Positions 6,368-64,000 of a stretch of DNA of 64,000 nucleotides are shown here, piece by piece. Made by a program: the position numbers and the translations under genes. The first letter of the stretch is position 1; every line of letters starts with the position of its first letter. The notes under the pieces are model-generated. The model did no database searches. It saw nothing but the letters and a program-made list of their open reading frames with translations, and had not been told where the DNA came from. This DNA is from a virus: positions 7,606 through 71,605 of the IMG/VR virus record IMGVR_UViG_3300027667_000003. One strand, given 5' to 3'.

Positions 6368-8428
6368 TTGGGTTTCTATAAAGAATTGGCAACCCCTTTA
6401 GCTGAACGTGGAATTCCCACGGTACCTCTCCGCCCAAAAACAAAAATCGCTTTCATGGATGGTTGGAATAATCTAGCCACCACTGATTTAGCACAGATCG
6501 AACTTTGGGATAGTCTGTACCCAGATGCAAATTGCGGTTCCGTTGCCAAAGCGGAATTCGGCGCTGTTTGGTTCTTCGAGTTCGATGGGCCGGATGTTGC
6601 GCAACGCGTATTCGCCGACACTAAGCAAAAACTTCCCGATACTTTTATGGTCCGATCCTCTCCGGGTCGCGGCCACATTTATTTCCGGCAGAACGCCGCC
6701 AGTCTTGCGATGGGTAATATTGCGCAAGGCTTTGTAAAGAATGGCGATTGGTCGGCCCGCGTCAGTAATCAATATGTTGTGTCACCCGGCAGTCTCCACC
6801 CCCGCACCGGCCTACCTTACGAAATACGATCCCTAGCTCCAATTGTTGAAGCACCTCAATGGTTTATCGATTGGTGTATCTCTCAAAAAGTTGAAAAGAA
6901 AAAATTAATACTGGCGGATAGTACTGAGCCCATCTCGGAGCATGCTCGCAATGATACCTTAACTTCTATCGGCGGGGGTTTGCGTCATAAAGGTTTGATT
7001 CACGGTGAAATATTAGCTGCTTTGTTGCGCATCAATGAAGAGCGCTGTTACCCACCCTTACCGGAATCTGAAGTTCAAACAATTGCAGCGTCAGTTAGTC
7101 GCTATGAAGTAGGCAAATCTAATGTGGTTCTTGTGGGTGGCAAAGTAGCCGGCTCAACTTCGGAATCCCCACCCCAACAAATGGCTTTGGCAACCGAGGA
7201 AGAAATTACCGAAATAACAGCCATTCCTTATCCTAAACCGATCGGCGGTTGGGATTGGATCATGCGTGGCACCTCTGTATATGAAGGTTTGGTCAAGCCT
7301 TTCTGTGATGTCAATTCACGCTATCCTGAGTTCATGTTTATGCCCGCCATCACTCTTATGCTGAATTATCTAGGAACTAAGATATATGTGAAAGACAAGA
7401 ATCTTATTCCTTCAATTTTCATGGTATCAATCGGCCGCGCCGGTCGTGTAATCAAATCATCCTGTGTTCAGGATGCTATAGCTTACTTCGAATATATGGG
7501 CTGCGTAGGACACGGCGAACAATCTGTGAATAACGCAAATGGGCGATCTCTTGTGTTCACACCCGCTTCACCGGAGGGTTTAGGCAAGGAATTAAATAGA
7601 ATGAACTGCAAAAATGGAGTTCTTTTCTACGATGAACTTTCGACACTCACCAATAAAGCTGGCATCGATGGGAGCACGCTCACATCTACTCTTCTTACAC
7701 TTTATGAGTCCGGCAAATTTCAAAATATGGTTAAGTCCGCTAAAGACAGTTATTCACTTTTACCAGGCACCTACGTCGCATCCTTGATTGCATGTTCAAC
7801 CGATAAAAATTTCGCAATGAATTGGAGCAAATTAGCCGGCAAATCTACCGGACTTAATGATAGATTTTTCTTTCTTTACCAACCTGAGATTTTGAAAGAC
7901 ATCACAGATTATATACATGTAAACACCCAAGAAGGTTCAGCAAAAACACGTCAACTTATTGATAAAGCTCTTGAGAAAAAAGTTTATGAAATTACAAACA
8001 AATCTCCTCTAAATGTTTTTAGAAAAGAAAATGAAAATGAAAATCGAGCAGCTATAAGGGCAGAAAAGCTAGCGTTGTATTTTGCAGTCGATTTAGGACT
8101 CGATGAGATAGATGATGAGTGCATCGAGAGAGCCTTGGCCCTTATAGATTATGAAATGAAAGTTAAGAAATACTTGAAAGTCTACGAAGCCGCCACCCGC
8201 GAAGGCAGCCTTCAAATGGAAGTTCTTTATCAGTTGCAAAAATCGGGTGGATCACTCCCTATGCGAGAACTATATCGACTACTCCATCCGGAGCGTTTTG
8301 GAACCAGTCTTTGGAATAGCGTATACATTGGGCTTTTAAAGGCCGGCTGGTGTCGTGAAGAGGGTAGTGGAACCAGAGGTGATCCGAAAAAATTAATATT
8401 ATTGAGAGCCCCCGAAGATGAAGATTAA
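6368..8428 (+). CDS. bifunctional primase-polymerase (Prim-Pol + PriCT) fused to a DUF3987-like C-terminal domain
   Basis: PTVPLRPKTKIAF, VRSSPGRGHIYF, QYVVSPGSLH, PriCT RNDTLTSIGGGLR...CYPPLPESEV, C-terminal SPEGL...LFYDELS. Confidence 0.85.
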   Translation: MGFYKELATPLAERGIPTVPLRPKTKIAFMDGWNNLATTDLAQIELWDSLYPDANCGSVAKAEFGAVWFFEFDGPDVAQRVFADTKQKLPDTFMVRSSPGRGHIYFRQNAASLAMGNIAQGFVKNGDWSARVSNQYVVSPGSLHPRTGLPYEIRSLAPIVEAPQWFIDWCISQKVEKKKLILADSTEPISEHARNDTLTSIGGGLRHKGLIHGEILAALLRINEERCYPPLPESEVQTIAASVSRYEVGKSNVVLVGGKVAGSTSESPPQQMALATEEEITEITAIPYPKPIGGWDWIMRGTSVYEGLVKPFCDVNSRYPEFMFMPAITLMLNYLGTKIYVKDKNLIPSIFMVSIGRAGRVIKSSCVQDAIAYFEYMGCVGHGEQSVNNANGRSLVFTPASPEGLGKELNRMNCKNGVLFYDELSTLTNKAGIDGSTLTSTLLTLYESGKFQNMVKSAKDSYSLLPGTYVASLIACSTDKNFAMNWSKLAGKSTGLNDRFFFLYQPEILKDITDYIHVNTQEGSAKTRQLIDKALEKKVYEITNKSPLNVFRKENENENRAAIRAEKLALYFAVDLGLDEIDDECIERALALIDYEMKVKKYLKVYEAATREGSLQMEVLYQLQKSGGSLPMRELYRLLHPERFGTSLWNSVYIGLLKAGWCREEGSGTRGDPKKLILLRAPEDED

Positions 8429-48273: not shown

Positions 48274-48348
48274 GTGGCGGTGGCTCAACGGCTAGAGCAC
48301 GCGACTGTGGCTCGCGGTATGTGGGTTCGATTCCCACCCGTCACCCCA
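48274..48348 (+). tRNA. tRNA-His (GTG), C73, encoded CCA, C (not G) at position -1
   Basis: Acceptor GTGGCGG/CCGTCAC, D stem GCTC/GAGC, anticodon stem CGCGA/TCGCG with loop CTGTGGC, T arm GTGGG-TTCGATT-CCCAC; upstream bases are TTCC. Confidence 0.95.
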
Positions 48349-48362
48349 ACAAAGGAGATATC

Positions 48363-49269
48363 ATGAAAATTAAATACAAAGACTTTCGATTATCAACCGG
48401 CAGCCTCTCCCTCGTGGAACAATGTAACGAGATAATCGAAGACTACACCAGCCAGGGATTCATGCTGACTTTGCGGCAACTTTACTACCAACTGGTTTCC
48501 CGAGATATAATTCCCAACACCGAACGATCTTATAAACGTGTAGGCTCAATTATCAATGACGCTCGATTAGCCGGCCTCATAGATTGGAACGCCATAGAAG
48601 ACCGCACTCGTAATGTCCGTAGTCTTTCTCACTGGGATAGTCCGGCCGATATTGTGGAAACTGTCGCAAAGCAATTTCGAGTAGATATGTGGGTTGGTCA
48701 GACATACCGGCCTGAAGTTTGGATAGAAAAAGACGCTCTCGTGGGCGTAATTGAAGGCATCTGTCACCAATACGATGTGCCCTATTTCTCGTGCCGAGGA
48801 TACACATCCCAATCAGAAATGTGGGGCGCAAGTCAACGTATGATCGAACACGCCGAAGGGGGGGCAGGTTCCCTATATCCTGCATTTCGGGGATCACGAT
48901 CCCTCGGGTAAAGATATGTCTCGCGATATTACCGATCGATTGAATATGTTTATGGGCGACGGTGGACTGGAATTCAAACGAATGGCCCTCAACATGGATC
49001 AGATTAAGAAATATAATCCGCCACCCAATCCTGCAAAATTAACCGACGCTCGTTGTGCGGGATACATCCGAGAATTCGGAGACAGTTCTTGGGAATTAGA
49101 CGCTCTCGAACCTCGTGTAATTTCAAATTTAATTTCTAATGCTTTAGACAATTTAATTGATCAAGAAGTTTGGGATGAGCGAGCAGACGAGATTAAGAAG
49201 GGCCGGAAGACTCTTCAAACCATATCCGACAATTACGTTAAGGTAGAGAAGTTTTTAGCCAAAAAATAG
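48363..49269 (+). pseudogene. Topoisomerase VI subunit A-like (winged helix + Toprim) gene split by a +1 frameshift in a G7 run
   Basis: LTLRQLYYQLV and EVWIEKDAL in the first frame; the Toprim motif ILHFGDHDPSGKDM is in the +1 frame right after GGGGGGG at 48858-48864. Confidence 0.75.
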
Positions 49270-49301
49270 TGCTTGACATCCTTTCGAAATCATGAGACTA
49301 T
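49264..49301 (+). promoter_or_regulatory. phage promoter motif AAATAGTGCTTGACA upstream of the integrase
   Basis: Exact copy of 14388-14402; -10 element poorly defined; GGAGG RBS follows. Confidence 0.5.
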
Positions 49302-49318
49302 TGATTTCGGAGGTCATA

Positions 49319-50251
49319 ATGGAAATGGACGTAGCAACACAAGCCGACATCTATCTCATGAGTCTTCAGACTCGCAAGCGTGGCACCGCGAAGGCATCCA
49401 CATTGGCGGCTTATCAATCCTATCTGAAAAATTGGATCGTGCCCAACATCGGCAATCTGGATTTAGGTGAGGTCAAGAATGGCACCCTCAAAAAGCTCGT
49501 GACAACCATGGCCGACGCCGGCCTCAGCCCGGCAACGATCGCTGGGGTGACAAATTGTGTCAAGGGTATAATCAATTCGGCCGTAAGTGAAGAAGGGGAT
49601 TACCTTTATCCCGTCAAATGGAACCACGAATTCATCGATTCGCCGCCAGTTAACGCCCGCGATCAAGAGAGTCCCATGATTGGGCCTTTAGAGGTCCGTA
49701 CAGCCATTTTGGCGGTTTCGGGCCAGTACCGCCCACTTCTGGCTCTGCTGGCCGGGACTGGCTGCCGTATTAGCGAGGCTCTAGCAATAAAGAAAGGGCC
49801 TTGCCCCGATTCTTCCTATTGGGATCCCGCTCGGGCCATTGTGTCCATTAGCACACAGATTTACCGCGGCCAAGAACAGTCGCCCAAGACGGCCGCGGGT
49901 TTTCGCGAGATTGATCTGGCACCCTCTCTAAACGATTTTCTTACCTGCAACTTTAACCTTAAACCTGCAAGTGAACTTCTCTTCTGCGACGAAAACAAGG
50001 AACCCCTCACGCTATCCGCGGTGTACCGCGCAACCGCATCGGCCAATATTCCGGGCTTCCATTCCTTCCGTCGGTTCCGCACCACGCATCTGCGCTCCAT
50101 GCGCGTGCCTGAAGACATCATCCAATTTTGGATCGGCCACTCGGGGAAGAGCATCACCGATCGTTATAGCAAAATGGCTCAAAATATCGAGGAACGAAAA
50201 AAGTATGCAGTCGAAGCGGGGTTGGGTTTCGAGCTACCGGAGGCACAATGA
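49319..50251 (+). CDS. int: tyrosine recombinase / integrase
   Basis: GCRISEAL (R), FHSFRR (HxxR), IGH, DRY (catalytic Tyr); N-terminal SAM-like region. Confidence 0.88.
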   Translation: MEMDVATQADIYLMSLQTRKRGTAKASTLAAYQSYLKNWIVPNIGNLDLGEVKNGTLKKLVTTMADAGLSPATIAGVTNCVKGIINSAVSEEGDYLYPVKWNHEFIDSPPVNARDQESPMIGPLEVRTAILAVSGQYRPLLALLAGTGCRISEALAIKKGPCPDSSYWDPARAIVSISTQIYRGQEQSPKTAAGFREIDLAPSLNDFLTCNFNLKPASELLFCDENKEPLTLSAVYRATASANIPGFHSFRRFRTTHLRSMRVPEDIIQFWIGHSGKSITDRYSKMAQNIEERKKYAVEAGLGFELPEAQ

Positions 50252-52048: not shown

Positions 52049-52834
52049 TCAGAGTGGTTCGAAATCGTGCGTATATCTACTACCCGGATCCACATGAGAT
52101 AATATTTCTCGAAGTATTTGAATCCGCTCTTGAATTGTCTCACCCTTATTCATATGCGGTTCCAACCGGTTGTAGTATCTAAATCCTTGATGAACCGCCA
52201 CAGACGGCTCTGCACATAAGACACGACCTTTTATCGACCGTTGAACCTTTCGAATCAATCCGTCATCCAAAAATCCGTCCATTCCTATCATGGTCGGAAA
52301 ATGTTTATCCAAATAGCCTTGATTATTTGCAAAATATTCTGAATTGATATGAGACACAATCTGTTTGAGGGAAGATCGACGATAGCAGGTACCGGGATTG
52401 GAATAAAAATCCGAAGGCATCCGACCGTGACGGCGACCGCATGTAACAAAGTAAGGAGCAGATTCATGTGTCTCCCAATTCCAAGAAAAAAAGGACGGTC
52501 GGATCATCACATCCTCTTCGATCATAAAAATAAACTCGGCCCCGGTGTCGTAGCCGGCTTTAAGTGCATTAAGGATGTTCCAGCAACCCGAAAGAACAGT
52601 AATGTGCTCATTCGCGTGAAAGAGATCGGCCGTGGGCAAATAAGTATCCCGCACATACGCGATCTCTTCCACACGTTTATCATCGGTTCGATCGATGTAC
52701 AACCGAACATCTAATCTATTGGCTTGAGGAGTTTGACTAATTTTTTCTAAAGCTAGGGCTAGAAACTCCGGCCTCTTCAGACAGGGCATCACTACGACGC
52801 TCTTCTGCACGACGCTGTTCTCGTTCTTGATCAA
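52049..52834 (-). CDS. GT-A fold glycosyltransferase
   Basis: VVVMPCLKRPEFL, RLYID, FMIEEDVMI; GGAGG RBS 9 nt before TTG. Confidence 0.7.
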   Translation of the reverse strand: MIKNENSVVQKSVVVMPCLKRPEFLALALEKISQTPQANRLDVRLYIDRTDDKRVEEIAYVRDTYLPTADLFHANEHITVLSGCWNILNALKAGYDTGAEFIFMIEEDVMIRPSFFSWNWETHESAPYFVTCGRRHGRMPSDFYSNPGTCYRRSSLKQIVSHINSEYFANNQGYLDKHFPTMIGMDGFLDDGLIRKVQRSIKGRVLCAEPSVAVHQGFRYYNRLEPHMNKGETIQERIQILREILSHVDPGSRYTHDFEPL

Positions 52835-53045
52835 GATGTTCCGCCTCCGCGGCCTCTTTAGCCAACCGCTGAGCTTTTTGAGCGCGAGCTTCTTCTTCCT
52901 GAGCCGCTGCTCGTTCTAAAAATCCCTTAGAATCGAAATCCTTTACTGCATCTTGAAACTTCTCTTCTGTGATTCCCGGTTCCGAAGCTGGAAAAGCAGC
53001 TTTTGCGCCGCCTCGCGCCATTCTATCGCCGAATCCCTTACCCAT
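52737..53045 (-). CDS. charged coiled-coil hypothetical protein
   Basis: GGGAGG RBS; Ala/Glu/Arg-rich; overlaps the next gene by 98 nt. Confidence 0.6.
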   Translation of the reverse strand: MGKGFGDRMARGGAKAAFPASEPGITEEKFQDAVKDFDSKGFLERAAAQEEEARAQKAQRLAKEAAEAEHLDQEREQRRAEERRSDALSEEAGVSSPSFRKN

Positions 53046-53066
53046 TGTTGTGACCTCCCATTGATT

Positions 53067-54152
53067 TTACTTCCTCTCCCATTCTACCAGCTTCTGCCAG
53101 ATTGTCAAGTGTTTTCTTTGAAGATACTGAAGCCAATGCTTTACACCCTCATCGTTCTGCCTTTCAATGCATCGGAAGCCTTCCAAAGCCGCACAGGATT
53201 GGGACAAAAGATTCACACCCACCCTTGCTATGTCCATCGCATCGTCAGAATCTGCTTTCCAATCCTCGGGCACCCAAGTGATAGCACTACTTACTACACT
53301 GGGTACACCACAATAGATCCCGTCGGCCGTGACCATGTTAAACGATTCAGTATAAGAAGGCTGCAATAGCAGATCCATCTTACCTACGATTTCTACAAAC
53401 TCTTCCCAAGGTCGCCAGGGATGCTTAACCAATGTAATGCCTTGAATTCCACTACACATAGCTACGATTGCCCGACCGACATCTCCGCCGTCACCTTCTC
53501 CACCGAAACTCATGTGTATTTCAACTGGAACATCCAATATCGCTTGAATAGCTGCTGCGCCGGCGGCCGCTGTCATAAAATTCTTGAGGGGTCGAATTGC
53601 TCCAAATATCCCGATCTTAACGGTACTAACACCGTCCCAGGTTTTTTCAACTACACCTGATAGGGGATAAAGATTAGGAAGATAAACGATTTTTGTCTTA
53701 TAAACTTTTTCCATCCAACGTACAAATCGAAGAGAATTACCGCCCACTCGAATGTTATCATGTGTCTTAGCTAATTCTAAAGCGTCCAGCAAATGTCGCA
53801 TACCCAAAGGATCGGCCTGAAGAAAACCCACATTGGAATGAGATTCTATCACAAATTGAATGCGAGGAAAACCTTCAATAAGGCTCTCCATATCCATCTC
53901 ACTCAACCAAGGTGCTGAAATGATCACATGGGTAAAAGAATGCTGATGTTCTCTTTCGTAATCCTTTATTTCATCTACCAAATCAATATTATGCTTTACC
54001 GGAAGAACAGATGTTTTAATACCATGTCTTCGAAGTACACGGGCGTTTGTTAAAGCTGCTACGTTCAGGCCTATATGTGAAAGACCCGTCCAACTCGCGA
54101 AGTTTTTAAACGCAATGCCGACTCTTAATTCATCTTTCGGTATCTCTCTCAT
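53067..54152 (-). CDS. GT4-like (GT-B) glycosyltransferase
   Basis: IGIFGAIRPLKN, MDLLLQPSYTESFNMVTADGIYCGVPSV. Confidence 0.8.
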   Translation of the reverse strand: MREIPKDELRVGIAFKNFASWTGLSHIGLNVAALTNARVLRRHGIKTSVLPVKHNIDLVDEIKDYEREHQHSFTHVIISAPWLSEMDMESLIEGFPRIQFVIESHSNVGFLQADPLGMRHLLDALELAKTHDNIRVGGNSLRFVRWMEKVYKTKIVYLPNLYPLSGVVEKTWDGVSTVKIGIFGAIRPLKNFMTAAAGAAAIQAILDVPVEIHMSFGGEGDGGDVGRAIVAMCSGIQGITLVKHPWRPWEEFVEIVGKMDLLLQPSYTESFNMVTADGIYCGVPSVVSSAITWVPEDWKADSDDAMDIARVGVNLLSQSCAALEGFRCIERQNDEGVKHWLQYLQRKHLTIWQKLVEWERK

Positions 54153-54175: not shown

Positions 54176-57100
54176 TTATTTACCTTTCAAAATTGCTCGA
54201 ACATAATTTTTTGTTTCTTCGGGTGTATGATCTAACCAATTATCACCCCATTTATCAACTGCATTTTGAACTCTATCTGGACTCCAATTGTATGCTGCTA
54301 AAGCTCGATCCCAGCGACCGAACTGATTGTGAAGTTGTGCCATGAGTTTCGCGCCGCCTGCTATATTCTGAACGGGATCGAAAGAATCTTGAACACCCAA
54401 AGCTTTCGCGGTTGGGTCCATGAGTTGCATCACCCCTTTGGCCCCTTTTTTACTGATTGCTCGGGGGTTTAAACCCGATTCTTGACGAGCCTGAGCGCGG
54501 AAGATATCCTGCGGGATACCATTGTCAGTTGCAGCCCGATCAATCAAACTAGGAATGTCTGTCTCTCTTCCCTCAGATTTAAAAGCGGTTTTTGTGGGTT
54601 GGAGTTCTTGTGTTTTAACTGCGGGTTTCTCTTCTTTCTTAGTCAAACCGGCTAACGCGCCTAATCCTCCGGCCGCAACTAATGCGCCCGCTAGAGGGTA
54701 GTTTGGTTTTTCTGTCTTTTTATTTAACTGGGTAGGGCTTTGTCCAACTCGGCTCTCGCGGCCGCTTTCTGTTCTGGCGACAGCCCTTTCACTACGTTCT
54801 TCAGTGCCCCCACCAACTCGCGGGGCGTTCCCTTGGCCGGAATTTTTGGATTGCTCATCTTTAATCTCCTTGGCGATCTGCGCGACTCGCTCCTTACTCA
54901 TGTGATGAGTTGTGGGCAGATCTTCTTCGCGCTGGCCGGAATACTTTTTAACTATATCAGCGAATCCGGGCTGTGTCAATACCTCGCGGGCTCGATTCTT
55001 CGCGGCCTCGATCTTGGCTACGGCATCGTCGTAAGTATACCCCAAAGCGCTTAAAAGACTGTGCGCCTCATGAATATCGCCTTTCATGCCCGCATTACTT
55101 TCCATGGGTGTGCCACTGAAAGCTTCTTCTCCCGCGCCGCCACCCATCAATAAAGTCAGAAAATCGTGAATGTGCGGAACAACCTTATCGTAGTCAATTC
55201 CATGTTTCGTTGCGCCCCAAGGATCTAAGTCTATGCTAACGGACGCGGCCGTGTTATCTACACGATTGTCCGGATGACGATCACTACGAATGCCGTCGTC
55301 TGTCCCCAAGCCCATAGAATCACCTACAAGCGCATGACCTAGCTCGTGGTGAATGTCATCCATAACTTCGCCCGGATAGTGCACAGTTTCAGGCAACCTC
55401 TCTAAAAGAGTTTTCTGAAGTTTAAACGAAGTGGGGTTGGGTTGAGATAGATCTAAACGATAAATCCCGTTCTCAACATCTACGGGATAACCTTTTTTCT
55501 GAAGAGCTTTCCACGCACTCGCGGCCGATGGGCTGGTTTCGCCCTTGGCATCTGAAGTAAAAAACTTAGCGCCTTGAGTCTGAGCTTTGTTCGCGGCCTC
55601 CAAAATCAGCTTTTGACCGTAGCCTTTTCCGCGTTCGCCTTCATCTAACCAACTGGAATTGACGGACGCATTTTCGCCTTTATGGGTGAAGTACAACGCA
55701 CCCATGTCTTCGTCGCCGATACGTAATTTGGCTTCGTTGATACCTTCTTTACTGCCCCCGTGTACTATCTCGGGAGCGGGCGTTGTGGCTGCCGCCCCCT
55801 TATTAGGGTTTTCAACTTCTCCGAAACCCTCGGGCTGCACCGTACGGCCCATTCTTACACCACCCGGTTTAGTGGGGATTGCAGCTTCTTTCGATGGGCC
55901 GGCCTTCTGCATGCGCTCCAATGCCTTACGCGTAAGTACATTGGGGTTCTCTTGTTGATCTCTCCACCAATCTGCGCCCAAAGAAGACAACTCCCCTATG
56001 ATAGCGCCCGGTGCTCCGCCTAATACCGCACCGGCGATCGCAGGCATCGCACCCCAACCTTTACGTCCGGTCAACCCTTTCCAGACGCTCCACTTTCCTG
56101 CGTCCTCTGATCTCTTGGCTGCATCGCGCAGTGCATCTCGAACATCAATGAGGCCTGCTTCTTGTCTCCGCCACTCTTGAACACCTTCGACACCCAAATC
56201 TTCAAACTTCTGATCAATCGCCTCTCGAAGAGCCCTATTGGCAACTGCTTTAGCATAAACTTCGGCAGAAGGAACTTTGCCCGCTTCGCCAAATGCAGGA
56301 GTAGAATCTTCTTTAAATCTTTGACGAATGTTTTCCGCACCGTAAAGATCAGGAGTCGGAGCAACGCGATTGACAGTTGGAGTCATCTCACCGGTGTTAG
56401 GATCTTTCGCCATCTTAGTTTCCAATCCTAACATCTTCATAACCGATGAAGAAGCTTTTTCGATTTCGTCCGGACTATATTTACGTTCAGCTTTATTCCA
56501 ACCTTCGTTCAAAGCATTTTGAATTTCAGTTTCAACGCCCTCCATACGGGCTTGCGGTAAACCGCGCATGTCCGCGGCTTTAGCCTTCAACTGAGACTCA
56601 ATACCGTTACGGTGGTTTTCGATCGCCTCGGCCATATCCACCGGAGTTTCAACGTTCGGATTTTTGTTGGCTATCACCGATAACTGTGGCATAGCATCTT
56701 TCAACGTAGTACGAAAATCATCGGCGACTAAACCTTTACCGGGTTTGATAGCTTTATACAAATTATCTGCGGCTGCTTCTAAATGCTCTGCCGGAGTTGC
56801 TTCTGGAGTTTTATCTGGAATCAAAGCTGCGGCCATCTTCGGAATAGCAGAAGAAACTTTACTAGCTGCTCGGCCCAAAGCTGCGTCGGCTGCGGCACCG
56901 GCTTTCGTCCAAGGCTGGGCGGCCGCCTCTCCTGGTGCTGTTTTAGTAGTGGCATGTTGAGTAGCCAGAGTAGACATGGCCCCGCTTAAAACGGCATGAG
57001 TGAGTTGATATTCTGCTTCTGGGGCATCGCCTGCATCGTAGGCTTCTTTAAAAGCTTTCATATGCTTATAGGCATTAGCGATTGTATCGCCGGCGAACCC

Positions 57101-57790
57101 CGCGCTGACCAAGCGGCTAGCCATACCCAAAGCTTGGGGCGACTCAACCATGCCCATTCCGCCCGTAGCAACCATCGTCGCCAACATCTGAGGACTGACA
57201 AAACTCTGGGCCGCCTCAGCGATCGCTTTCCCCATAGGGTGTTTCTTTTTATCCACAAACTGTGCAGCGTCTACCGGAGGTTTTGCCAAAGAACTTTTAA
57301 TTTCCTCATGAGCACCCTCACCTTTAAAATCTGGGTTGACTTTTTGAATAAATTTCTCAAGAGGACTACCCGGAATAACATGCGGACGCTCAGAGTCCCA
57401 AATCTTTCCTAATCCTTGTCGTACATTTCCATGAAGAATGTCTGACGCACCGGAAATCTCAGTAGATGCTTCTTTCGTTGGAGCTTCATTCGCAGATCCT
57501 AATACCGTATTAGGTCCGGTAAATAGTTTCCCTATTGTAGATTGAGGAGGTGCAGCCGTCGCAGTGGGTGCAATCGTTCCGCCGAACTGTTTAACCAAAT
57601 CGTTATAGTTGGCATGTGAAGCAACGTCGGCCGAAGCACCGGCTGGAGCCTTTGAAACCGGAGCATCGGTAGGTGCAACAGTCTGGGTAGAGGATGCAGC
57701 CGGAGCAGGGGTCGCAGCTACCGTTCCACCAAACTGCTTTGCTAACGCGGCATAATCCGGAGTTTCTTGTCCGTTCTGATCGTCAGGCAT
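54176..57790 (-). CDS. large virion ejection protein with GNAT-like, M41-like metallopeptidase and lytic transglycosylase domains
   Basis: RGKGYGQKL (about 55443-55742), HHELGH...MGGGAGEE (about 54950-55370), QESG...GAKGVMQLM...ALAAYN...ETKNYV (about 54179-54560). Confidence 0.8.
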   Translation of the reverse strand: MPDDQNGQETPDYAALAKQFGGTVAATPAPAASSTQTVAPTDAPVSKAPAGASADVASHANYNDLVKQFGGTIAPTATAAPPQSTIGKLFTGPNTVLGSANEAPTKEASTEISGASDILHGNVRQGLGKIWDSERPHVIPGSPLEKFIQKVNPDFKGEGAHEEIKSSLAKPPVDAAQFVDKKKHPMGKAIAEAAQSFVSPQMLATMVATGGMGMVESPQALGMASRLVSAGFAGDTIANAYKHMKAFKEAYDAGDAPEAEYQLTHAVLSGAMSTLATQHATTKTAPGEAAAQPWTKAGAAADAALGRAASKVSSAIPKMAAALIPDKTPEATPAEHLEAAADNLYKAIKPGKGLVADDFRTTLKDAMPQLSVIANKNPNVETPVDMAEAIENHRNGIESQLKAKAADMRGLPQARMEGVETEIQNALNEGWNKAERKYSPDEIEKASSSVMKMLGLETKMAKDPNTGEMTPTVNRVAPTPDLYGAENIRQRFKEDSTPAFGEAGKVPSAEVYAKAVANRALREAIDQKFEDLGVEGVQEWRRQEAGLIDVRDALRDAAKRSEDAGKWSVWKGLTGRKGWGAMPAIAGAVLGGAPGAIIGELSSLGADWWRDQQENPNVLTRKALERMQKAGPSKEAAIPTKPGGVRMGRTVQPEGFGEVENPNKGAAATTPAPEIVHGGSKEGINEAKLRIGDEDMGALYFTHKGENASVNSSWLDEGERGKGYGQKLILEAANKAQTQGAKFFTSDAKGETSPSAASAWKALQKKGYPVDVENGIYRLDLSQPNPTSFKLQKTLLERLPETVHYPGEVMDDIHHELGHALVGDSMGLGTDDGIRSDRHPDNRVDNTAASVSIDLDPWGATKHGIDYDKVVPHIHDFLTLLMGGGAGEEAFSGTPMESNAGMKGDIHEAHSLLSALGYTYDDAVAKIEAAKNRAREVLTQPGFADIVKKYSGQREEDLPTTHHMSKERVAQIAKEIKDEQSKNSGQGNAPRVGGGTEERSERAVARTESGRESRVGQSPTQLNKKTEKPNYPLAGALVAAGGLGALAGLTKKEEKPAVKTQELQPTKTAFKSEGRETDIPSLIDRAATDNGIPQDIFRAQARQESGLNPRAISKKGAKGVMQLMDPTAKALGVQDSFDPVQNIAGGAKLMAQLHNQFGRWDRALAAYNWSPDRVQNAVDKWGDNWLDHTPEETKNYVRAILKGK

Positions 57791-59889
57791 TATTGTTTGA
57801 CTCCTGATTGAGCGGCCAAAGCCGCCTTAAACTGATCCGCTTGTTCCTGTGTATTGAAATGAGCGGAGTGGCCGTCCGGAAGGGGTACCTCAATTGTAGC
57901 CTGAGCCGCTTGTCCTTTATTTCGAATATACTGCGCAGCTTCGATCTGCTGAGGACTAACACCCGGCATCGGTTTGTTCCAACGAGAAGAAGGCATCGCA
58001 TCTTTCCATTCATTTTGATATTGGGAAACTTTTTCCATAATGCGATCATTCTGTTCTTCGACTGCGGCTTGCTTAGAGCCTTGAGGATCCAGTGTTCTGA
58101 AGACCGAAGGATCCAAAGAATTCTTAGCTCCCTCGATGTCTTGATTACTAGGGGCATTACCGCCAGCAAGAAATCGAGCTAACTCCATAGAAGCGTCATT
58201 CAAATCAGCCTGGCGTTTTGCATAATTCACTCCGCCGATGAGAGCACCCGGAAGTTTATTATCATCATACAATGCTTTCAAGTGAACTAAAGAAGTACCG
58301 GCAGAGTTCAACTGATTGGCAACTTGTCCGCTCGTGAATTTTTTAGTGGCCTCAACATATCCACCGATCTTACTAACATCAAGTTGAGGATCAGAGAGTG
58401 CCGCTTCTGCAAGGAACTGCTGACCGTCTTTACTCGATAGCATACGCTGTAGCTGGCCGGGAGGCAATTGACCGTTGATAAAAGCCTGCATCACAGGTTG
58501 ACGAGACGGAGGCAAAGATTTAAGATAAGGCTGACCGGTTAAATTAGGATCGCCTTCAACTTCCAACGGCTTGTTCTTAGCCGCAGTAGCGTTGGCCTTA
58601 ATATTCTCCAAAGATGATTTTTCCCATTGATCAATACTCTTGTCAATGATCTTTTGACCCATGCCATTCTTAACGGAGTCCAACTGCTTCTGAACAGCTT
58701 GAGCATGATCGGTCGGCTGACCGGTCTTAGAATCAATTTCCTTAGCGGCATCCTGCATATTCTTCATTGCCAGTCCGGGATCACCTTTAGCATCATTGAG
58801 CCAAGGCAAAAACGTGTGGCCGGCTTCTCGAAACTCTGCTTTATCCTGAAGCTCCGCCAACTTCTCTTTCGTGGTACCACCTTCAAGTGCAGCTTGAGAG
58901 GCTGCATTTTCTTCCACAACTTTAAGCCCGATTTGAGCACGCAATGCACCCGCATCTCGGGGCTGAAGAACATCGCCTTCTTTAAAATCTTTACCCAAAT
59001 ATTTCTTGGCCTGAGATGCAATACTTGCATTAATGGTTAATGGATCACCCCAAGTCAAAGCAGAATAGGTTGCTTGACGTTGCGGTGCCCCCGTAGGCTT
59101 CCCGTTGCGATCAGTGCCTTGAATAATATCGCCGTTAGGGTCAGTCACATTGCGCCAACCGTCTTGATGAAGATTCTGATCAGACAACCACTTCATTCCT
59201 TGGGGATCCGAATCTGATTTGTGCTGAGCAGCCAATTGCTTCAATTCCATATCCGTCATGTTAGCCTGAATCACTGTTTGACCGGCATCTTTCTGTGCAG
59301 TTTCCCAAGGCTTGTAGATCTTATTATACATTTCATCTTGCGCTTCTGAAGTACTATGACGCAAAGCATCCTGAGTCTTGACACCCCGAATAAGAGTGTC
59401 AGCATCCTGAGCATCTTGCTTCATCTTGAGTTCTTTAGTCTTATAGTCGTTTTCAAACTCTTGCTGCTTAGCTTGAGAAGCCTGCTTCTTCTGTTCATTC
59501 TGCTGAGCTTGGCGTGCTTCCATCACTTTACCTACACCGTAAAGAGCGCCACCGCCCGCGGGAACTTTCCCGATATTTCCGACTCCCGCCAATGCTGATT
59601 GCAAGCCGCCTACAAGAGCTTTAGCCCAGGCTCCAGGTGCCGACGGATCGCTGGCAGTTTTAATAAGTTTATCGGCATTGCGAGCAAACTGGGTGCGCAG
59701 ATCTTCCGATACGCCACCTTTAGGCGGAGGAGGTGGAAGGCCACCCAATGAAGATGCTCCACCCGTTGATGTGGTATCCATTGGAAGAGCACCCGTAGTA
59801 TCCGGTGCTCCCGTCGAAGGAGCCGCAGTCGATGCCGCAGGATCGGTTTGTCCACCTAAAAGTTGTTCTGGTGATAATTCCAATGCCAT
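57790..59889 (-). CDS. internal virion / DNA ejection protein
   Basis: Ala/Gln/Gly-rich helical 699-aa protein between the pilot-like gene and the transglycosylase gene; podovirus-like order. Confidence 0.6.
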   Translation of the reverse strand: MALELSPEQLLGGQTDPAASTAAPSTGAPDTTGALPMDTTSTGGASSLGGLPPPPPKGGVSEDLRTQFARNADKLIKTASDPSAPGAWAKALVGGLQSALAGVGNIGKVPAGGGALYGVGKVMEARQAQQNEQKKQASQAKQQEFENDYKTKELKMKQDAQDADTLIRGVKTQDALRHSTSEAQDEMYNKIYKPWETAQKDAGQTVIQANMTDMELKQLAAQHKSDSDPQGMKWLSDQNLHQDGWRNVTDPNGDIIQGTDRNGKPTGAPQRQATYSALTWGDPLTINASIASQAKKYLGKDFKEGDVLQPRDAGALRAQIGLKVVEENAASQAALEGGTTKEKLAELQDKAEFREAGHTFLPWLNDAKGDPGLAMKNMQDAAKEIDSKTGQPTDHAQAVQKQLDSVKNGMGQKIIDKSIDQWEKSSLENIKANATAAKNKPLEVEGDPNLTGQPYLKSLPPSRQPVMQAFINGQLPPGQLQRMLSSKDGQQFLAEAALSDPQLDVSKIGGYVEATKKFTSGQVANQLNSAGTSLVHLKALYDDNKLPGALIGGVNYAKRQADLNDASMELARFLAGGNAPSNQDIEGAKNSLDPSVFRTLDPQGSKQAAVEEQNDRIMEKVSQYQNEWKDAMPSSRWNKPMPGVSPQQIEAAQYIRNKGQAAQATIEVPLPDGHSAHFNTQEQADQFKAALAAQSGVKQ

Positions 59890-59905: not shown

Positions 59906-60556
59906 TTATCCAGCTAATGACTTTAAACCACCCTGAAGTCCACCACCGCCCATCGCACCTGCGCCGAATGTTGCAGCATCCATACCCAAACCTACAATTC
60001 CTCCGGCAATATCCGCTTCCATTTGACCTTGCTGTTGAGAAATTGCACTAGCTGATCCGAAAGCCTGACCTTGCGCCGTAGTAGTTGCGCCGGCGAAACC
60101 CAAGGGATTCTGAATACCTGCCAATGTCTGATATCCGCCAATAGCTGTCTCAGTGTTCCGCTCAGCCTGAGCTTGATTGGCTAATTGAATCTGAGCCTGT
60201 TCTGTCGATAACTGTCCTGCGCCTTGACTTGCAATACCGGCTTTAATCTGAGCATCTACACCCGATTCTAATCCACTGTCTCCACCGCGGCCAGCTAATT
60301 GATTATTTGTAGCTCGGGCAGCCTTTGCATAGTTAGCGCCCGTAGTATCAATTGCAGAAGTGTTAAGCGCAGCCAAAGTATTTGCGTCAAATCCAGGAAG
60401 CAATTTACCTTGAGATACTCCTGAGAGAATATTCCCTAAGGAACTCAATGTCATGGTCTGCCCAGCAAATCTTGATGAAAAATCTTGCGACAGAAGATTT
60501 GAAAAACTGGCCTGTTGGCCTGCGATCTGCTTCTCTTGTCCTGACGGTCCGCACAC
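59906..60556 (-). CDS. small internal virion (DNA pilot-like) protein
   Basis: Gly/Ala/Gln/Ser-rich with C-terminal Gly zipper GGIVGLGMDAATFGAGAMGGGG. Confidence 0.6.
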   Translation of the reverse strand: MCGPSGQEKQIAGQQASFSNLLSQDFSSRFAGQTMTLSSLGNILSGVSQGKLLPGFDANTLAALNTSAIDTTGANYAKAARATNNQLAGRGGDSGLESGVDAQIKAGIASQGAGQLSTEQAQIQLANQAQAERNTETAIGGYQTLAGIQNPLGFAGATTTAQGQAFGSASAISQQQGQMEADIAGGIVGLGMDAATFGAGAMGGGGLQGGLKSLAG

Positions 60557-60569
60557 AGTGCTACCTCTC

Positions 60570-60986
60570 TTAAAACATAAAAATATAATCGTTGGTATTT
60601 TCTACTGACTTAAAACCCATTCTATCCATAAAACGAATCAACAAAGGTGATACAGATTCAAACACAAATCCTTTAGCCCCTTCTTGCTTTGCCTTAAAAG
60701 CTAAAGCTGGAATAGCTCGCGATATCACCCGTATCACTCTAGTTTTTGTGACTTCATTTTCCGGTGCAAACTGAGTGTGCAATCGAACTAATTCCCCTTC
60801 TAAATCGAAACGAAAGTACATCGTTGGCCCACCTGCATCTTCTATACAACCGGACAAAACTCCTTGACCGGTCAGCCACCATCCAGGCCCATCGATCGAT
60901 GCTTTCGCACAATGATATGGATCGGCTAGTGCCCAACGAAGAATCTGCGGTTGATCATCCGGAAGTGTGGAAGTGAATTTAATCAT
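60570..60986 (-). CDS. GNAT-like protein in the virion module
   Basis: RLHTQF...FESVSPLLIRFMDRMGFK; position before the pilot gene as in podoviruses; TAATG overlap at 60986. Confidence 0.5.
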   Translation of the reverse strand: MIKFTSTLPDDQPQILRWALADPYHCAKASIDGPGWWLTGQGVLSGCIEDAGGPTMYFRFDLEGELVRLHTQFAPENEVTKTRVIRVISRAIPALAFKAKQEGAKGFVFESVSPLLIRFMDRMGFKSVENTNDYIFMF

Positions 60987-62389
60987 TAGGCTGGATTCCA
61001 AATAAAATCAAAAAAATCTATGGCAATTTGTTTGTTCTGAGTAGGGGATGCACTCGTATCGTTTCCAAACAAAAATGCTGGAACAACTGCTGGAAAACCC
61101 GTAGCAACTTGCGACGTATTCACAACAGTAGAAATAGTTGCTGTGGGCACTGACCAAGATAAATGATCCTTGTCTCCAACGTATTGGAGGGGAAACGTCC
61201 CATTTAAAGTTGCCAAAGTCCCGGTAAATCCTGTGAAAGTAACTAAAGAACCCGTACTAAATGGCCCGTCGTTTCCTGCAAAAGAAGCGGTAGCTACGTG
61301 ATTATTTACTATAGCCGAGCCCGATCCGCCGGAATTAAGAGCGAATGTCGGCACCGCCAATGTTGCCGTAGCTGAGGATCCGTCAGTTCCTGACAAAGAA
61401 AAATTAACAGATCCTGACCCGTTGCTTGACATCGTAAGCGTATACCAAGTAAACTCAGTGGGAACAATTGTGGTGTTAAAGGTGTTGCCTTGAACATTGC
61501 TAACTGAACCAGATGTAACATCATTTGCAACGCATTCAAACCAAAAGGTTGAATCACCAATAGAAGGGGATGTCGTATCCGTATCGAACCTCAACCAGGC
61601 TCCTGCTGCTGGCCTTCTAAAAACATTTTCTGAAGCGTTAGAAGGGCTTATATAACCCACATATAAACTAGTTTGAACTAAAGGAAATGCTGATGCTGTT
61701 GCTGATCCGGCGGGATCTGGATACCGTTTTACTTGAAAAATCATTGTGGAGGTCCAAACAGGGTAATCAAATAAAGGCCACAATGCGTTTTCAGATCCCG
61801 CTTGGCCGGCTTGACTAATAGAAGGAAAAGTCAACTCTGTCGTACTCGTGCCACTAGAAGGAGATGAACTATTTGGAAAATTAAATGTTCCTAAATGTGG
61901 AAAGCCCCCCGAAGATGTATAAGCCAAAGTAAATGTAGATCCTGCACAATTCCATTTTAATTCCCCACCAGGAATCGCATTTGCAACAGCATTATCCGTA
62001 CCGAAAGCAAAGTGATCTATAAACTGAATAGCATTGGGTACAAAAGTTGAAGTTACAGGAACTTGTTTCGGCAAACCTGCAATCGCCTGATTGACAATTG
62101 TCGTGGCAACGCCTATCGCCTTGGCGTTATCACCCGCACCGCCTTGAACCGGCATGAGTCTTACTGTTCCTAAACCAGGAGCGGTATCTGTTTTAGCCAA
62201 ATCCGTAGCTAACCCGAAATTAGGAGGCAGAGGACCAGAATTAAATGGATCGCGGCCTGTTGGAGTTGGAGGACCACCTACGGGAAGATTGGGATTAATG
62301 GGCGGAGCATCCACTGGCTGCCAATTTTCCGGCATACCATAATTATTTTCCGGTCCGTCTTCTTGAGGGGGCTTCTTTTTGTCTGGCAT
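60986..62389 (-). CDS. Ser/Thr-rich beta-structured virion protein (fibre/lectin-like) with Pro-rich N-terminus
   Basis: Composition and position in the structural arm; start set at MPDKKK. Confidence 0.55.
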   Translation of the reverse strand: MPDKKKPPQEDGPENNYGMPENWQPVDAPPINPNLPVGGPPTPTGRDPFNSGPLPPNFGLATDLAKTDTAPGLGTVRLMPVQGGAGDNAKAIGVATTIVNQAIAGLPKQVPVTSTFVPNAIQFIDHFAFGTDNAVANAIPGGELKWNCAGSTFTLAYTSSGGFPHLGTFNFPNSSSPSSGTSTTELTFPSISQAGQAGSENALWPLFDYPVWTSTMIFQVKRYPDPAGSATASAFPLVQTSLYVGYISPSNASENVFRRPAAGAWLRFDTDTTSPSIGDSTFWFECVANDVTSGSVSNVQGNTFNTTIVPTEFTWYTLTMSSNGSGSVNFSLSGTDGSSATATLAVPTFALNSGGSGSAIVNNHVATASFAGNDGPFSTGSLVTFTGFTGTLATLNGTFPLQYVGDKDHLSWSVPTATISTVVNTSQVATGFPAVVPAFLFGNDTSASPTQNKQIAIDFFDFIWNPA

Positions 62390-62390
62390 T

Positions 62391-63998
62391 TTAAAGTTCA
62401 ATCATCAAACGGCCAAATATGGTTAAATCAAAAATCTCATCGCCCGTATCTGTTGTACCGTAATCCACTCGCAATTGCAGATGACGACACCGAGCCAACG
62501 ACCCTGTTTGTGCAAAATAATACCGCAGGGGCTGATAACTTGATGGAGTGATCGTTCGACCATAAAGAGATGGGGGATCAAAAACAGGGCTCGGTATATT
62601 TGTAAATGGGCCTGAAATCTCATTTAAGAGATAACTCACTGTGGGTGTGAATCCCGCAGAGAAATCCCCCTCCACAAACTTCAAAAGTGCCAAAGATCCC
62701 GGATGCGCAAGGACTATACTCCCCATGACAAAGAACGCGTCGTACGAAATTCCGTTATCCGTGAATACATTCAAATTCCTTTCCAGAATCTGAAAACACC
62801 CGTTTTGATTTGCAGTGTTGCCCCCACCTCCGCTAGAAGACGCAGGGGGCACTGTAATAGAATTACTGAGTAAAGTTACCGCACCGTTTTGAGCCAACAG
62901 TCGGCCGCTAGTGGAAGCATTTGTGCCTACACTGATCGATGTCAAAGCTAAAATTGTACCCCCAAAAATAGATGAGGTTCCTAATGTGGCAGAAGATCCG
63001 ACTTGCCAGAATACATTAAATGCCGTCGCTCCATTTGTTAAAAGTACACTGGAGCCTACACCCGTAATAAGAGTTGTAGCCATCTGGAACACATAATTTC
63101 CTGCTCCATTTAGAGTAACGGTTTGTCCCGCTCCCAACGAGAATGTTCCACTCAAACTTGAATAGATACCAGGAGAAAGTGTCTGACCGTCCAATGCCGT
63201 TGGAATAGTTACGGCTCCTAACAGACCCGCAGCTTGGTTATAAGCGGTAGTCAAATCTAATTTAGCCTGAACCGCCGCTGGATTGTCTATGTTCGTAGCA
63301 CCTGTTACTGTGGGTGATCCAGTTACCGCGCTGCCCGGACTAAGCCCTAAATCCCCAAAGATAAAAGTGGGTCCGGAATTCGTAATAGTTGATCCGGCTA
63401 AAACACCATAGGTGGAAGCCGACAAAAGATTTACAGAAGGAGGAACTCCAACAATCCCTCCACCTCCGCCTGCACCCAGTGTAGATTTTGTACCCACAAG
63501 TAATTTCTTGATTCCCGGTGCAACTTCAACCGATTGAACCATGCGAGCGCCATTTGTAATTGTAGCGAAGGGGCTCCAAATTGCCTCAGGCCCATTTGAA
63601 CCACCCGGTACTTGATGCGGATTACAGCGCCACCAACCGGTTGAACCGTCCGCAACATAAAAAGCGTTATCCACACCAGCTTGTTGAATAGCCAAATAAC
63701 CCGCGGAAGGATCCAAAAGAGTTAATTGATCCCCAATTGGGAAGCCCGCATTTGATAACTGCAAAGAAGGATTAATGATCTTAAGTTGAGAGTCCGAAGA
63801 AAAGAAATATATTTCTCCCGCATAGATATCCAAGAAATTGTAGCTCAGCATTCCAATACCAGGTGCTAATGTCACTTGATAGAATGAATTTGTCTGCGGA
63901 CCACCACCAATAAATTCAACGCTGTCCGTAAGAAATGTGACTAATCCCTGTGAGTTTTTAACCACTCGGGTTACAGGAGCCAAGAATGGAAAATTATC
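62391..63998 (-). CDS. virion structural protein (tail/DNA-stabilisation-like), 5' partial, containing a DUF3494 ice-binding-type domain
   Basis: Frame is open to the window edge (DNFPFLAPVTR...); aa 184-378 of the listed ORF match the DUF3494 pattern. Confidence 0.8.
   Translation of the reverse strand, partial: DNFPFLAPVTRVVKNSQGLVTFLTDSVEFIGGGPQTNSFYQVTLAPGIGMLSYNFLDIYAGEIYFFSSDSQLKIINPSLQLSNAGFPIGDQLTLLDPSAGYLAIQQAGVDNAFYVADGSTGWWRCNPHQVPGGSNGPEAIWSPFATITNGARMVQSVEVAPGIKKLLVGTKSTLGAGGGGGIVGVPPSVNLLSASTYGVLAGSTITNSGPTFIFGDLGLSPGSAVTGSPTVTGATNIDNPAAVQAKLDLTTAYNQAAGLLGAVTIPTALDGQTLSPGIYSSLSGTFSLGAGQTVTLNGAGNYVFQMATTLITGVGSSVLLTNGATAFNVFWQVGSSATLGTSSIFGGTILALTSISVGTNASTSGRLLAQNGAVTLLSNSITVPPASSSGGGGNTANQNGCFQILERNLNVFTDNGISYDAFFVMGSIVLAHPGSLALLKFVEGDFSAGFTPTVSYLLNEISGPFTNIPSPVFDPPSLYGRTITPSSYQPLRYYFAQTGSLARCRHLQLRVDYGTTDTGDEIFDLTIFGRLMIEL
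62850..63434 (-). other. DUF3494 / IBP-1 ice-binding-type beta-solenoid domain inserted between Gly-rich linkers
   Basis: YGVLAGSTITNSG, GDLGLSPG, QAKLDLTTAYNQAA, LDGQTLSPGIY, VFQMATTL, VLLTNGATAFNVFWQVGSSATLGT, GTILALTSI, GRLLAQNGAVTL. Confidence 0.9.
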
Positions 63999-64000
63999 TG

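Follow-up and report, generated by a model that had tools for sequence, protein, structure and literature searches.

An FtsH-fold peptidase domain without an AAA+ motor in a probable ejection protein of an uncultured podophage

Which enzymes are built into the largest protein of a probable phage ejection operon, and on what would its peptidase act? These questions are raised by a gene for a protein of 1204 amino acids (aa) at positions 54176–57790 (minus strand) of a stretch of viral DNA of 64,000 nucleotides, hereafter the window, which corresponds to positions 7,606 to 71,605 of the IMG/VR record IMGVR_UViG_3300027667_000003. A preliminary description, made from the letters and a list of open reading frames (ORFs), assigned to the gene product a GNAT acetyltransferase, an FtsH-like metallopeptidase of family M41 and a lytic transglycosylase (SLT), and proposed that the protein is injected with the phage DNA and possibly processes itself. 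The three domain assignments are, we are nearly certain, correct. By its modelled fold and its residues, the M41 segment is a motor-less zinc peptidase domain with a complete predicted catalytic set. The label polyvalent is also appropriate, as GNAT, M41 and SLT lie in one large polypeptide in a late virion-gene context. The parts of the protein, in the order in which they are used below, are:

54851–55381, minus strand: M41/FtsH-fold zinc metallopeptidase domain without AAA+, residues 804–980 (profile, model and structure matches)
55439–55732, minus strand: minimal GNAT acetyltransferase, residues 687–784 (PF00583 profile matches)
54179–54565, minus strand: SLT lytic transglycosylase, residues 1076–1204 (PF01464, E 7e-25)
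55904–56779, minus strand: core B, a mainly helical conserved core, residues 338–629 (recurrent in homologues)
56936–57295, minus strand: core A, helical and ending in a mildly hydrophobic stretch, residues 166–285 (recurrent in homologues)
54638–54700, minus strand: Gly/Ala/Leu hydrophobic segment between the cargo and SLT, residues 1031–1051 (hydropathy; candidate membrane-crossing helix)

The motifs quoted in the preliminary description were found where it had placed them, inside a single ORF: HHELGH is residues 814–819 (55334–55351), LMGGGAGEE is 881–889 (55124–55150), GDI is 904–906 (55073–55081), and the acetyl-CoA motif A, RGKGYG, is R720–G725 (55616–55633). With the refined bounds listed above, the M41 domain is slightly longer than it had stated. 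Such motifs are weak evidence when isolated. In shuffled sequences, HExxH appeared in 3.8% of the shuffles and an RGxGxG-type motif in 3.5%, and a Pfam scan of the whole protein detected SLT strongly, GNAT weakly and M41 not at all. Families were therefore built for each segment.

A phmmer search with residues 795–985 against 1.84 billion representatives retrieved 189 clusters, mostly of proteins of 1000–3000 aa. Among 168 copies of the domain, H815, H819, G884 and D905 never vary, while E816 is kept in 89%, the remainder having Asp. The same picture was given by an alignment of 149 rows, where the combination H-E-H-D occurs in 130 and H-D-H-D in 19, with H815, H819 and D905 invariant. Besides these five key residues, the family has specific conserved positions of its own (S836/H839/P840, N899, R954-E955 and H963). 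The best matches of the family profile in the PDB were YME1 and E. coli FtsH (E 6e-4), and D905 was aligned with an Asp of theirs that we take to be the third zinc ligand of FtsH. The AlphaFold2 model of the domain is confident (predicted local distance difference test, pLDDT, 95; predicted template-modelling score, pTM, 0.91) and the HExxH helix comes first in it (H10–26 of the model). The best E-value obtained with this model in Foldseek was a modest 2.7e-3, and the top 50 matches were nearly all FtsH-family chains. In an exhaustive structure comparison, the first eight matches were all FtsH or Ycf2 (Z 9.2–12.6, root-mean-square deviation 3.0–4.8 Å, 138–162 residues) and the next one scored 6.5; against 7tdo, Z was 12.5 with a deviation of 3.4 Å over 155 aligned residues. 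The closest Atlas cluster is a stand-alone M41 family of 165 aa (TM 0.69). The segment itself misses the gathering score of PF01434 (13.2 bits versus 29.9), which is matched by 16 of the 149 family members at E of 0.05 or below, at best 2e-5. Judged by these sequences, the domain is a divergent subfamily of M41. No AAA+ domain was found in the 1204-aa protein or in about 50 full-length homologues that were scanned, and the fused AAA+ ATPase and N-terminal membrane anchors of the FtsH type are absent from the 1204-aa protein.

The peptidase segment thus models as an FtsH protease fold, and the other central segment matches GNAT profiles at the level of sequence, so that the preliminary description was not refuted on these two points. 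PF00583 is matched by 28 of the 29 homologous GNAT domains (best E 2e-13) and by the query itself at 21.4 bits against a cut-off of 20.7, and the family profile finds GNAT structures, the minimal YjdJ among them. The alignment begins at the beta2 strand; the fused GNAT presumably does without the usual N-terminal beta1-alpha1-alpha2, the acceptor-shaping helices, as in YjdJ. The SLT assignment is the most straightforward by score. Its Pfam match spans residues 1082–1180 with 87 bits against a cut-off of 21.3, the catalytic E1104 (the Glu in ES) and the GxMQ and AYN motifs are present, and the SLT of T7 gp16 is among the PDB matches.

The identification as an ejection protein comes from the genome around the gene. 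The viral genome is a single contig of 110.9 kb with a terminase, an SU10-type portal and a major head protein upstream of the ejection genes, which follow the nozzle region in this order:

60570–61001, minus strand: 143-aa stand-alone GNAT-fold protein, gp13 position, homologous to gp22 ('acetyltransferase') of phage Tunturi 3
59906–60556, minus strand: 216-aa Gly/Ala/Gln-rich putative ejection protein, gp14 position, homologous to Tunturi 3 gp23
57790–59889, minus strand: 699-aa putative ejection protein, gp15 position, in a slot that is conserved, also in Tunturi 3 (gp24)
54176–57790, minus strand: 1204-aa polyvalent protein, gp16 position, last and largest in the operon, one uninterrupted ORF with the same slot in all relatives examined

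The 699-aa gene and the beginning of the 1204-aa gene share one base. By language-model features, which give a lead only, the cluster nearest to its product that has a name is the phage DNA ejection protein PF16928 (score 0.92). The Atlas structure of the 143-aa protein resembles GNATs at TM 0.75–0.80, and its place presumably parallels that of podovirus gp13. The genes gp14, gp15 and gp16 of the T7 ejection operon are small, medium and large (PMC8954989). The ejection identity proposed in the preliminary description is well supported because the operon has this T7-like order and is homologous to that of a podovirus, Tunturi 3; on synteny and homology the 1204-aa protein is very probably an ejection protein equivalent to gp16. 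Synteny also suggests that the product is packaged and transferred with the DNA.

Tunturi 3, a podovirus of Tunturiibacter (PMC11924767), is the only annotated phage that matched the capsid, with 34.5% identity. The phage studied here is a podophage related to this phage of Acidobacteriota: portal, capsid, nozzle and the homologues in the gp13, gp14 and gp15 positions are shared in identical order (PP885686; PMC11924767). The last protein differs, as gp25 of Tunturi 3 has 1070 aa, no M41, GNAT or SLT, and at best a faint match to core B (E 0.002–0.01; hhalign negative). The possibility that SLT was relocated to gp24 in Tunturi 3 was rejected, since gp24 gave no Pfam match to SLT. An unrelated HExxH motif lies near residue 790 of gp25 (L022:26674–29886); it has no Pfam match and may belong to another metallopeptidase as a replacement. 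A soil member of the Acidobacteriota is a plausible and probable host. A contig assigned to a metagenome-assembled genome (MAG) of Bryobacterales (contig 90 of G001; L023:1–4185) starts with a palindrome of 4.2 kb that cuts its ejection gene. The palindrome is likely an assembly chimera, and the contig is probably a viral one that was binned. M41 was not matched in 401 sampled genomes of the phylum of this MAG, nor was core B matched again there, and the host is thus not confirmed by a prophage.

Outside its enzymes, the protein consists largely of the two helical cores. Core B was modelled with a pLDDT of 89 and ends in a Gly-rich hydrophobic hairpin according to hydropathy (residues 579–606, 55973–56056); it may be a channel or membrane part. 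No Pfam or PHROGs family was found for it, the PHROGs matches being weak, and no informative match in the PDB was obtained by sequence or by fold, where the matches were generic helical ones with a best Z of about 8. Its fold does match proteins of uncultured Caudovirales, some labelled large-polyvalent-domain or LT_GEWL. The segment at residues 1031–1051 is preceded by a disordered Gly/Glu/Arg-rich linker and goes with SLT in the family: it was found in 5 of the 6 homologues whose SLT is C-terminal versus 3 of 124 others, and one of those three ends right after the segment. This suggests, as a lead, that SLT would be periplasmic and that GNAT and M41 would be cytoplasmic; it is only a lead because the signal is modest and the SLT-bearing proteins are related to one another.

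How constant is the combination of domains? Two sets were used. A set of 150 proteins was chosen by the M41 domain and contains core B in 75, core A in 49, a fused GNAT in 29 and SLT in 7. As such a set is unsuited to showing that M41 is absent, 18 viral records were chosen by the capsid alone, which avoids the selection bias. Searches for related loci that started from P0001 or the 216-aa protein yielded none, and the capsid was the route by which relatives were reached. The 216-aa protein is kept in 16 of these 18 and core B in 13. In 11 of the 13, M41 is in the same ORF, and the remaining two are cut at the contig end; none of the 11 M41 carriers has a fused GNAT. Two near-complete relatives have compact proteins of 703 and 755 aa in the slot, both without M41 (one is a divergent core only, the other has SLT), and M41 is therefore not required for ejection as such. 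Together with the 11 M41 carriers, these two make 13 capsid-selected relatives with the operon, and the fused GNAT is absent from all of them. The core is usually accompanied by M41, whereas GNAT and SLT are optional cargo. The recurring feature of the family is the helical core with M41 and not the set of three enzymes.

The cargo and the peptidase itself are both mobile within the family. The fused GNAT is N-terminal to M41 in 17 proteins and C-terminal in 12, and shares its slot with ADP-ribosyltransferases. Other cargo in relatives includes ART-PolyVal (matched strongly twice and weakly a third time in P0002), DUF7178, radical SAM, KTSC and FtsK-gamma, and some members of 1045–1054 aa have M41 with little other cargo. 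Between P0001 and its closest relative P0002, identity is 70% in core B, 71% in GNAT and 58% in SLT and only 33% in M41; in other pairs with at least 50% core identity, M41 identity is 22–29%. Two to three M41 copies, mostly from different clades, are held by 16 of the 150 proteins. A clade with Glu replaced by Asp (HDxxH) provides the sole M41 copy detected in several long proteins. Three stand-alone copies of 209–252 aa, P0037, P0053 (L028) and P0065 (L029), are all HDxxH and nested in the phage clade. They lie outside virion modules, two with resolvase, RepB-primase or toxin-antitoxin-like genes as neighbours and one near HEPN_AbiV, and were possibly captured by mobile islands. The tree behind these clades is a quick version without bootstrap or outgroup, and it neither roots nor dates an origin of the domain from FtsH.

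Several single members and modules of the family were recorded in passing. The C-terminal cargo seen most often is DUF7178 (PF23802), present in 26 of 51 proteins scanned (e.g., P0152, P0010, P0035 and L027:4613–11602). A PDB sequence search with it gave no match; its motifs resemble what we take to be a DNA glycosylase-type module with a helix-hairpin-helix. Of the proteins at L115:3781–9354 and L117:3397–9939, one has the M41 motif in the variant form HExxxH and retains the Asp, and the other an HDxxH copy of M41 together with a second, unrelated His-rich HExxH-like domain. A radical SAM domain is cargo in a member of 3045 aa (P0103:1728–1887).

The mechanism that we favour is as follows. 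The 1204-aa protein would be ejected upon adsorption together with the 216-aa and 699-aa proteins, and the helical core with its Gly-rich hairpin may help to form a channel across the envelope. The C-terminal SLT would open the peptidoglycan, as expected from the function of its family and from its catalytic residues. If the hydrophobic segment before SLT crosses the inner membrane, SLT would stay in the periplasm while GNAT and M41 would face the cytoplasm, where acetyl-CoA is available. M41 is predicted from fold and residues to be an ATP-independent zinc peptidase; because it has no unfoldase, it would be limited to cutting exposed or unstructured segments. It may clip an early-acting protein of the host, such as a defence or membrane factor, as an accessory effector, and GNAT would be a swappable cargo that acetylates a host protein. 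Both enzymes would thereby act in the newly infected cell. A precedent for anti-defence ejection proteins exists (10.1101/2025.07.23.666291). The host-directed role of the protease is our preference, held tentatively and as something slightly short of probable.

The main alternative, self-processing having been named as a possibility in the preliminary description, is that M41 is a hub of self-processing, which cuts the adjoining disordered linkers in cis, at assembly or after ejection, and thereby frees SLT and the cargo from the channel core, as proposed for DdrB of phage P1. Part of the evidence for this view also counts against the host-directed one. M41 is nearly constant with core B (11 of the 11 capsid-selected phages that could be assessed) while the other cargo varies widely, which is the expected look of a processing hub; autoprocessing is also the function preferred for such peptidases by Iyer 2017 (PMC5512222). 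A Gly/Ala/Glu-rich disordered linker follows M41, the additional M41 copies lie between blocks of cargo, and where M41 is missing, in the two compact versions, other cargo is missing too, a point that is compatible with either reading. The host-directed scheme is further weakened by the way in which the host was deduced, from a cultured phage that is distantly related and from a MAG contig that is binned and palindromic, by the modest hydropathy on which the topology rests (peak 1.2–1.7) and by an SLT-bearing homologue, P0006, that has no hydrophobic segment. Against self-processing, in turn, count the flanks of the M41 domain, in which no conserved cleavage motif was found after anchor alignment, and the members that have M41 with little other cargo. 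The exchange of M41 between close relatives (33% identity against 70% in the core), the copies from mixed clades within one protein, the stand-alone copies on mobile islands and the Asp variants that are the sole copy fit an accessory effector somewhat better than self-processing. Self-processing is accordingly a serious competitor, but on balance a doubtful one, and the same holds for the liberation of SLT and cargo that it would bring about.

The remaining alternatives are less probable. GNAT and M41 might work in the producer cell at virion assembly, where they would mature or modify virion proteins, and be passengers at infection. A stand-alone GNAT is encoded in the same operon of nearly every relative, which shows that the virion module makes use of this fold; acetyl-CoA is in ample supply while virions are assembled, and none of the head genes that were scanned was recognised as a prohead protease. 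The fused GNAT is, however, sporadic and variable in position, its slot is also occupied by ADP-ribosyltransferases, a typical kind of injected effector, and an essential assembly enzyme should not be absent from close relatives; we regard this explanation as improbable. Still less probable is an enzyme that breaches the envelope from the periplasm beside SLT by cutting peptidoglycan cross-links or envelope proteins. M41 does adjoin SLT here, and a similar role was suggested for the metallopeptidase of phi24B gp47 (10.64898/2026.04.10.717836). However, just 7 of the 150 M41-bearing proteins have SLT, and the hydrophobic segment lies between the two domains. To our knowledge, no peptidoglycan activity of the M41 fold is known, which also counts against this role. 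Lastly, M41 could be mainly a non-catalytic, zinc-bound module for binding or as a decoy that interferes, for example, with host FtsH or its substrates. This would account for the 13% of copies that have Asp for the catalytic Glu with all zinc ligands kept, and for further conserved residues that do not belong to the core motif (R954, E955, H963 and H839); yet the general base is kept in 87%, the 1204-aa protein included, and such a module is very improbable. When the host-directed effector is combined with the rest of our proposal, the AAA-less FtsH-fold protease would become the hub domain of polyvalent ejection proteins that form a family not yet described, in a widespread group of uncultured soil podophages; it would be injected for counter-defence that needs no ATP, diversified and swapped as in an arms race, borrowed by mobile islands and equipped with a membrane segment before SLT. 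As a whole, this is possible and clearly less than probable.

Some further features of the window and its neighbourhood touch none of these subjects. A nozzle-like protein of 1476 aa with an ice-binding domain (PF11999) is encoded at 62391–64000, and its gene runs on to genome position 74426. Directly after the ejection gene and in the same direction, 52049–54152 encodes a GT4-like glycosyltransferase (361 aa) and a possible second glycosyltransferase of 261 aa, a pair that lies away from the main glycosylation island. At 48321–49269, two adjacent ORFs of 196 and 117 aa, upstream of a tyrosine integrase at 49292–50251, resemble one split Toprim-type protein, possibly through a frameshift.

That phages inject multi-enzyme proteins is a known concept, and the surprise is limited to that extent; for an FtsH-type peptidase in them, no description was found. 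No paper linking M41 or FtsH-like domains to virion or polyvalent proteins was found in the literature, in which the coverage of subscription papers was incomplete. The family has no significant match in PHROGs or Pfam and none in 50,697 annotated phage genomes. It is missed by current libraries, yet has about 190 clusters in metagenomes and is common in a large group of uncultured phages, and it adds an FtsH fold without a motor to the enzyme types that phages can carry in ejection proteins. The domain has no more than 180 aa, its model is confident, and both Glu-to-Asp variants and stand-alone copies of it occur in nature; it is therefore well suited to addressing a question raised by Iyer 2017, whether such peptidases cleave themselves or host proteins. 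How M41 can function when no ATP-driven unfolding precedes it may also be learned from this domain.

The closest parallel in overall design is found in the polyvalent proteins of Iyer 2017 (PMC5512222). These too are large late-gene products that join a zincin peptidase, a GNAT and a lysozyme-fold SLT, with one to three peptidase copies among shuffled domains, GNAT beside ART, and ART-PolyVal, which occurs here in relatives. In the peptidases described there, a sheet precedes the HExxH helix and the third ligand is Glu; they are said to have no relation to clades defined earlier, and neither FtsH nor M41 is named (PMC5512222). Compared by description with those metallopeptidase clades, the present domain differs in its N-terminal HExxH, its invariant Asp as the third ligand and its M41 fold. 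The ejection sets of T7 (gp14, gp15 and gp16; PMC8954989) and of the SU10 and P22 types share with this operon the gene order and sizes (216, 699 and 1204 versus about 200, 747 and 1318 aa), SLT on the largest protein, hydrophobic segments and a podovirus-type portal. In T7 gp16, however, SLT is N-terminal, whereas here it is C-terminal with enzymatic cargo in the middle of the protein, and no sequence or fold similarity to gp16 was detected outside SLT. With FtsH, YME1 and AFG3L2 (family M41; PDB 7tdo, 2di4, 4ww0 and 6az0), the peptidase shares the fold (Z about 12), HExxH, the GG-x-x-x-E helix and the Asp ligand. It differs from them by the loss of AAA+ and anchors, by an identity of 14–19% that leaves it below the Pfam cut-off, by the extra conserved His/Pro, Asn and Arg-Glu motifs and by its place inside a protein of a virion operon. 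Stand-alone M41 proteins without AAA are already known, such as the Atlas cluster of 165 aa; plant VIR3 has been referred to as a putative M41 protease. The fused GNAT, finally, is as short as the minimal GNATs represented by E. coli YjdJ (PDB 5i0c; PF14542), starts like them at beta2 and keeps motif A, and is distinguished by phage-specific S-D, W and G motifs and by its use as fused cargo.

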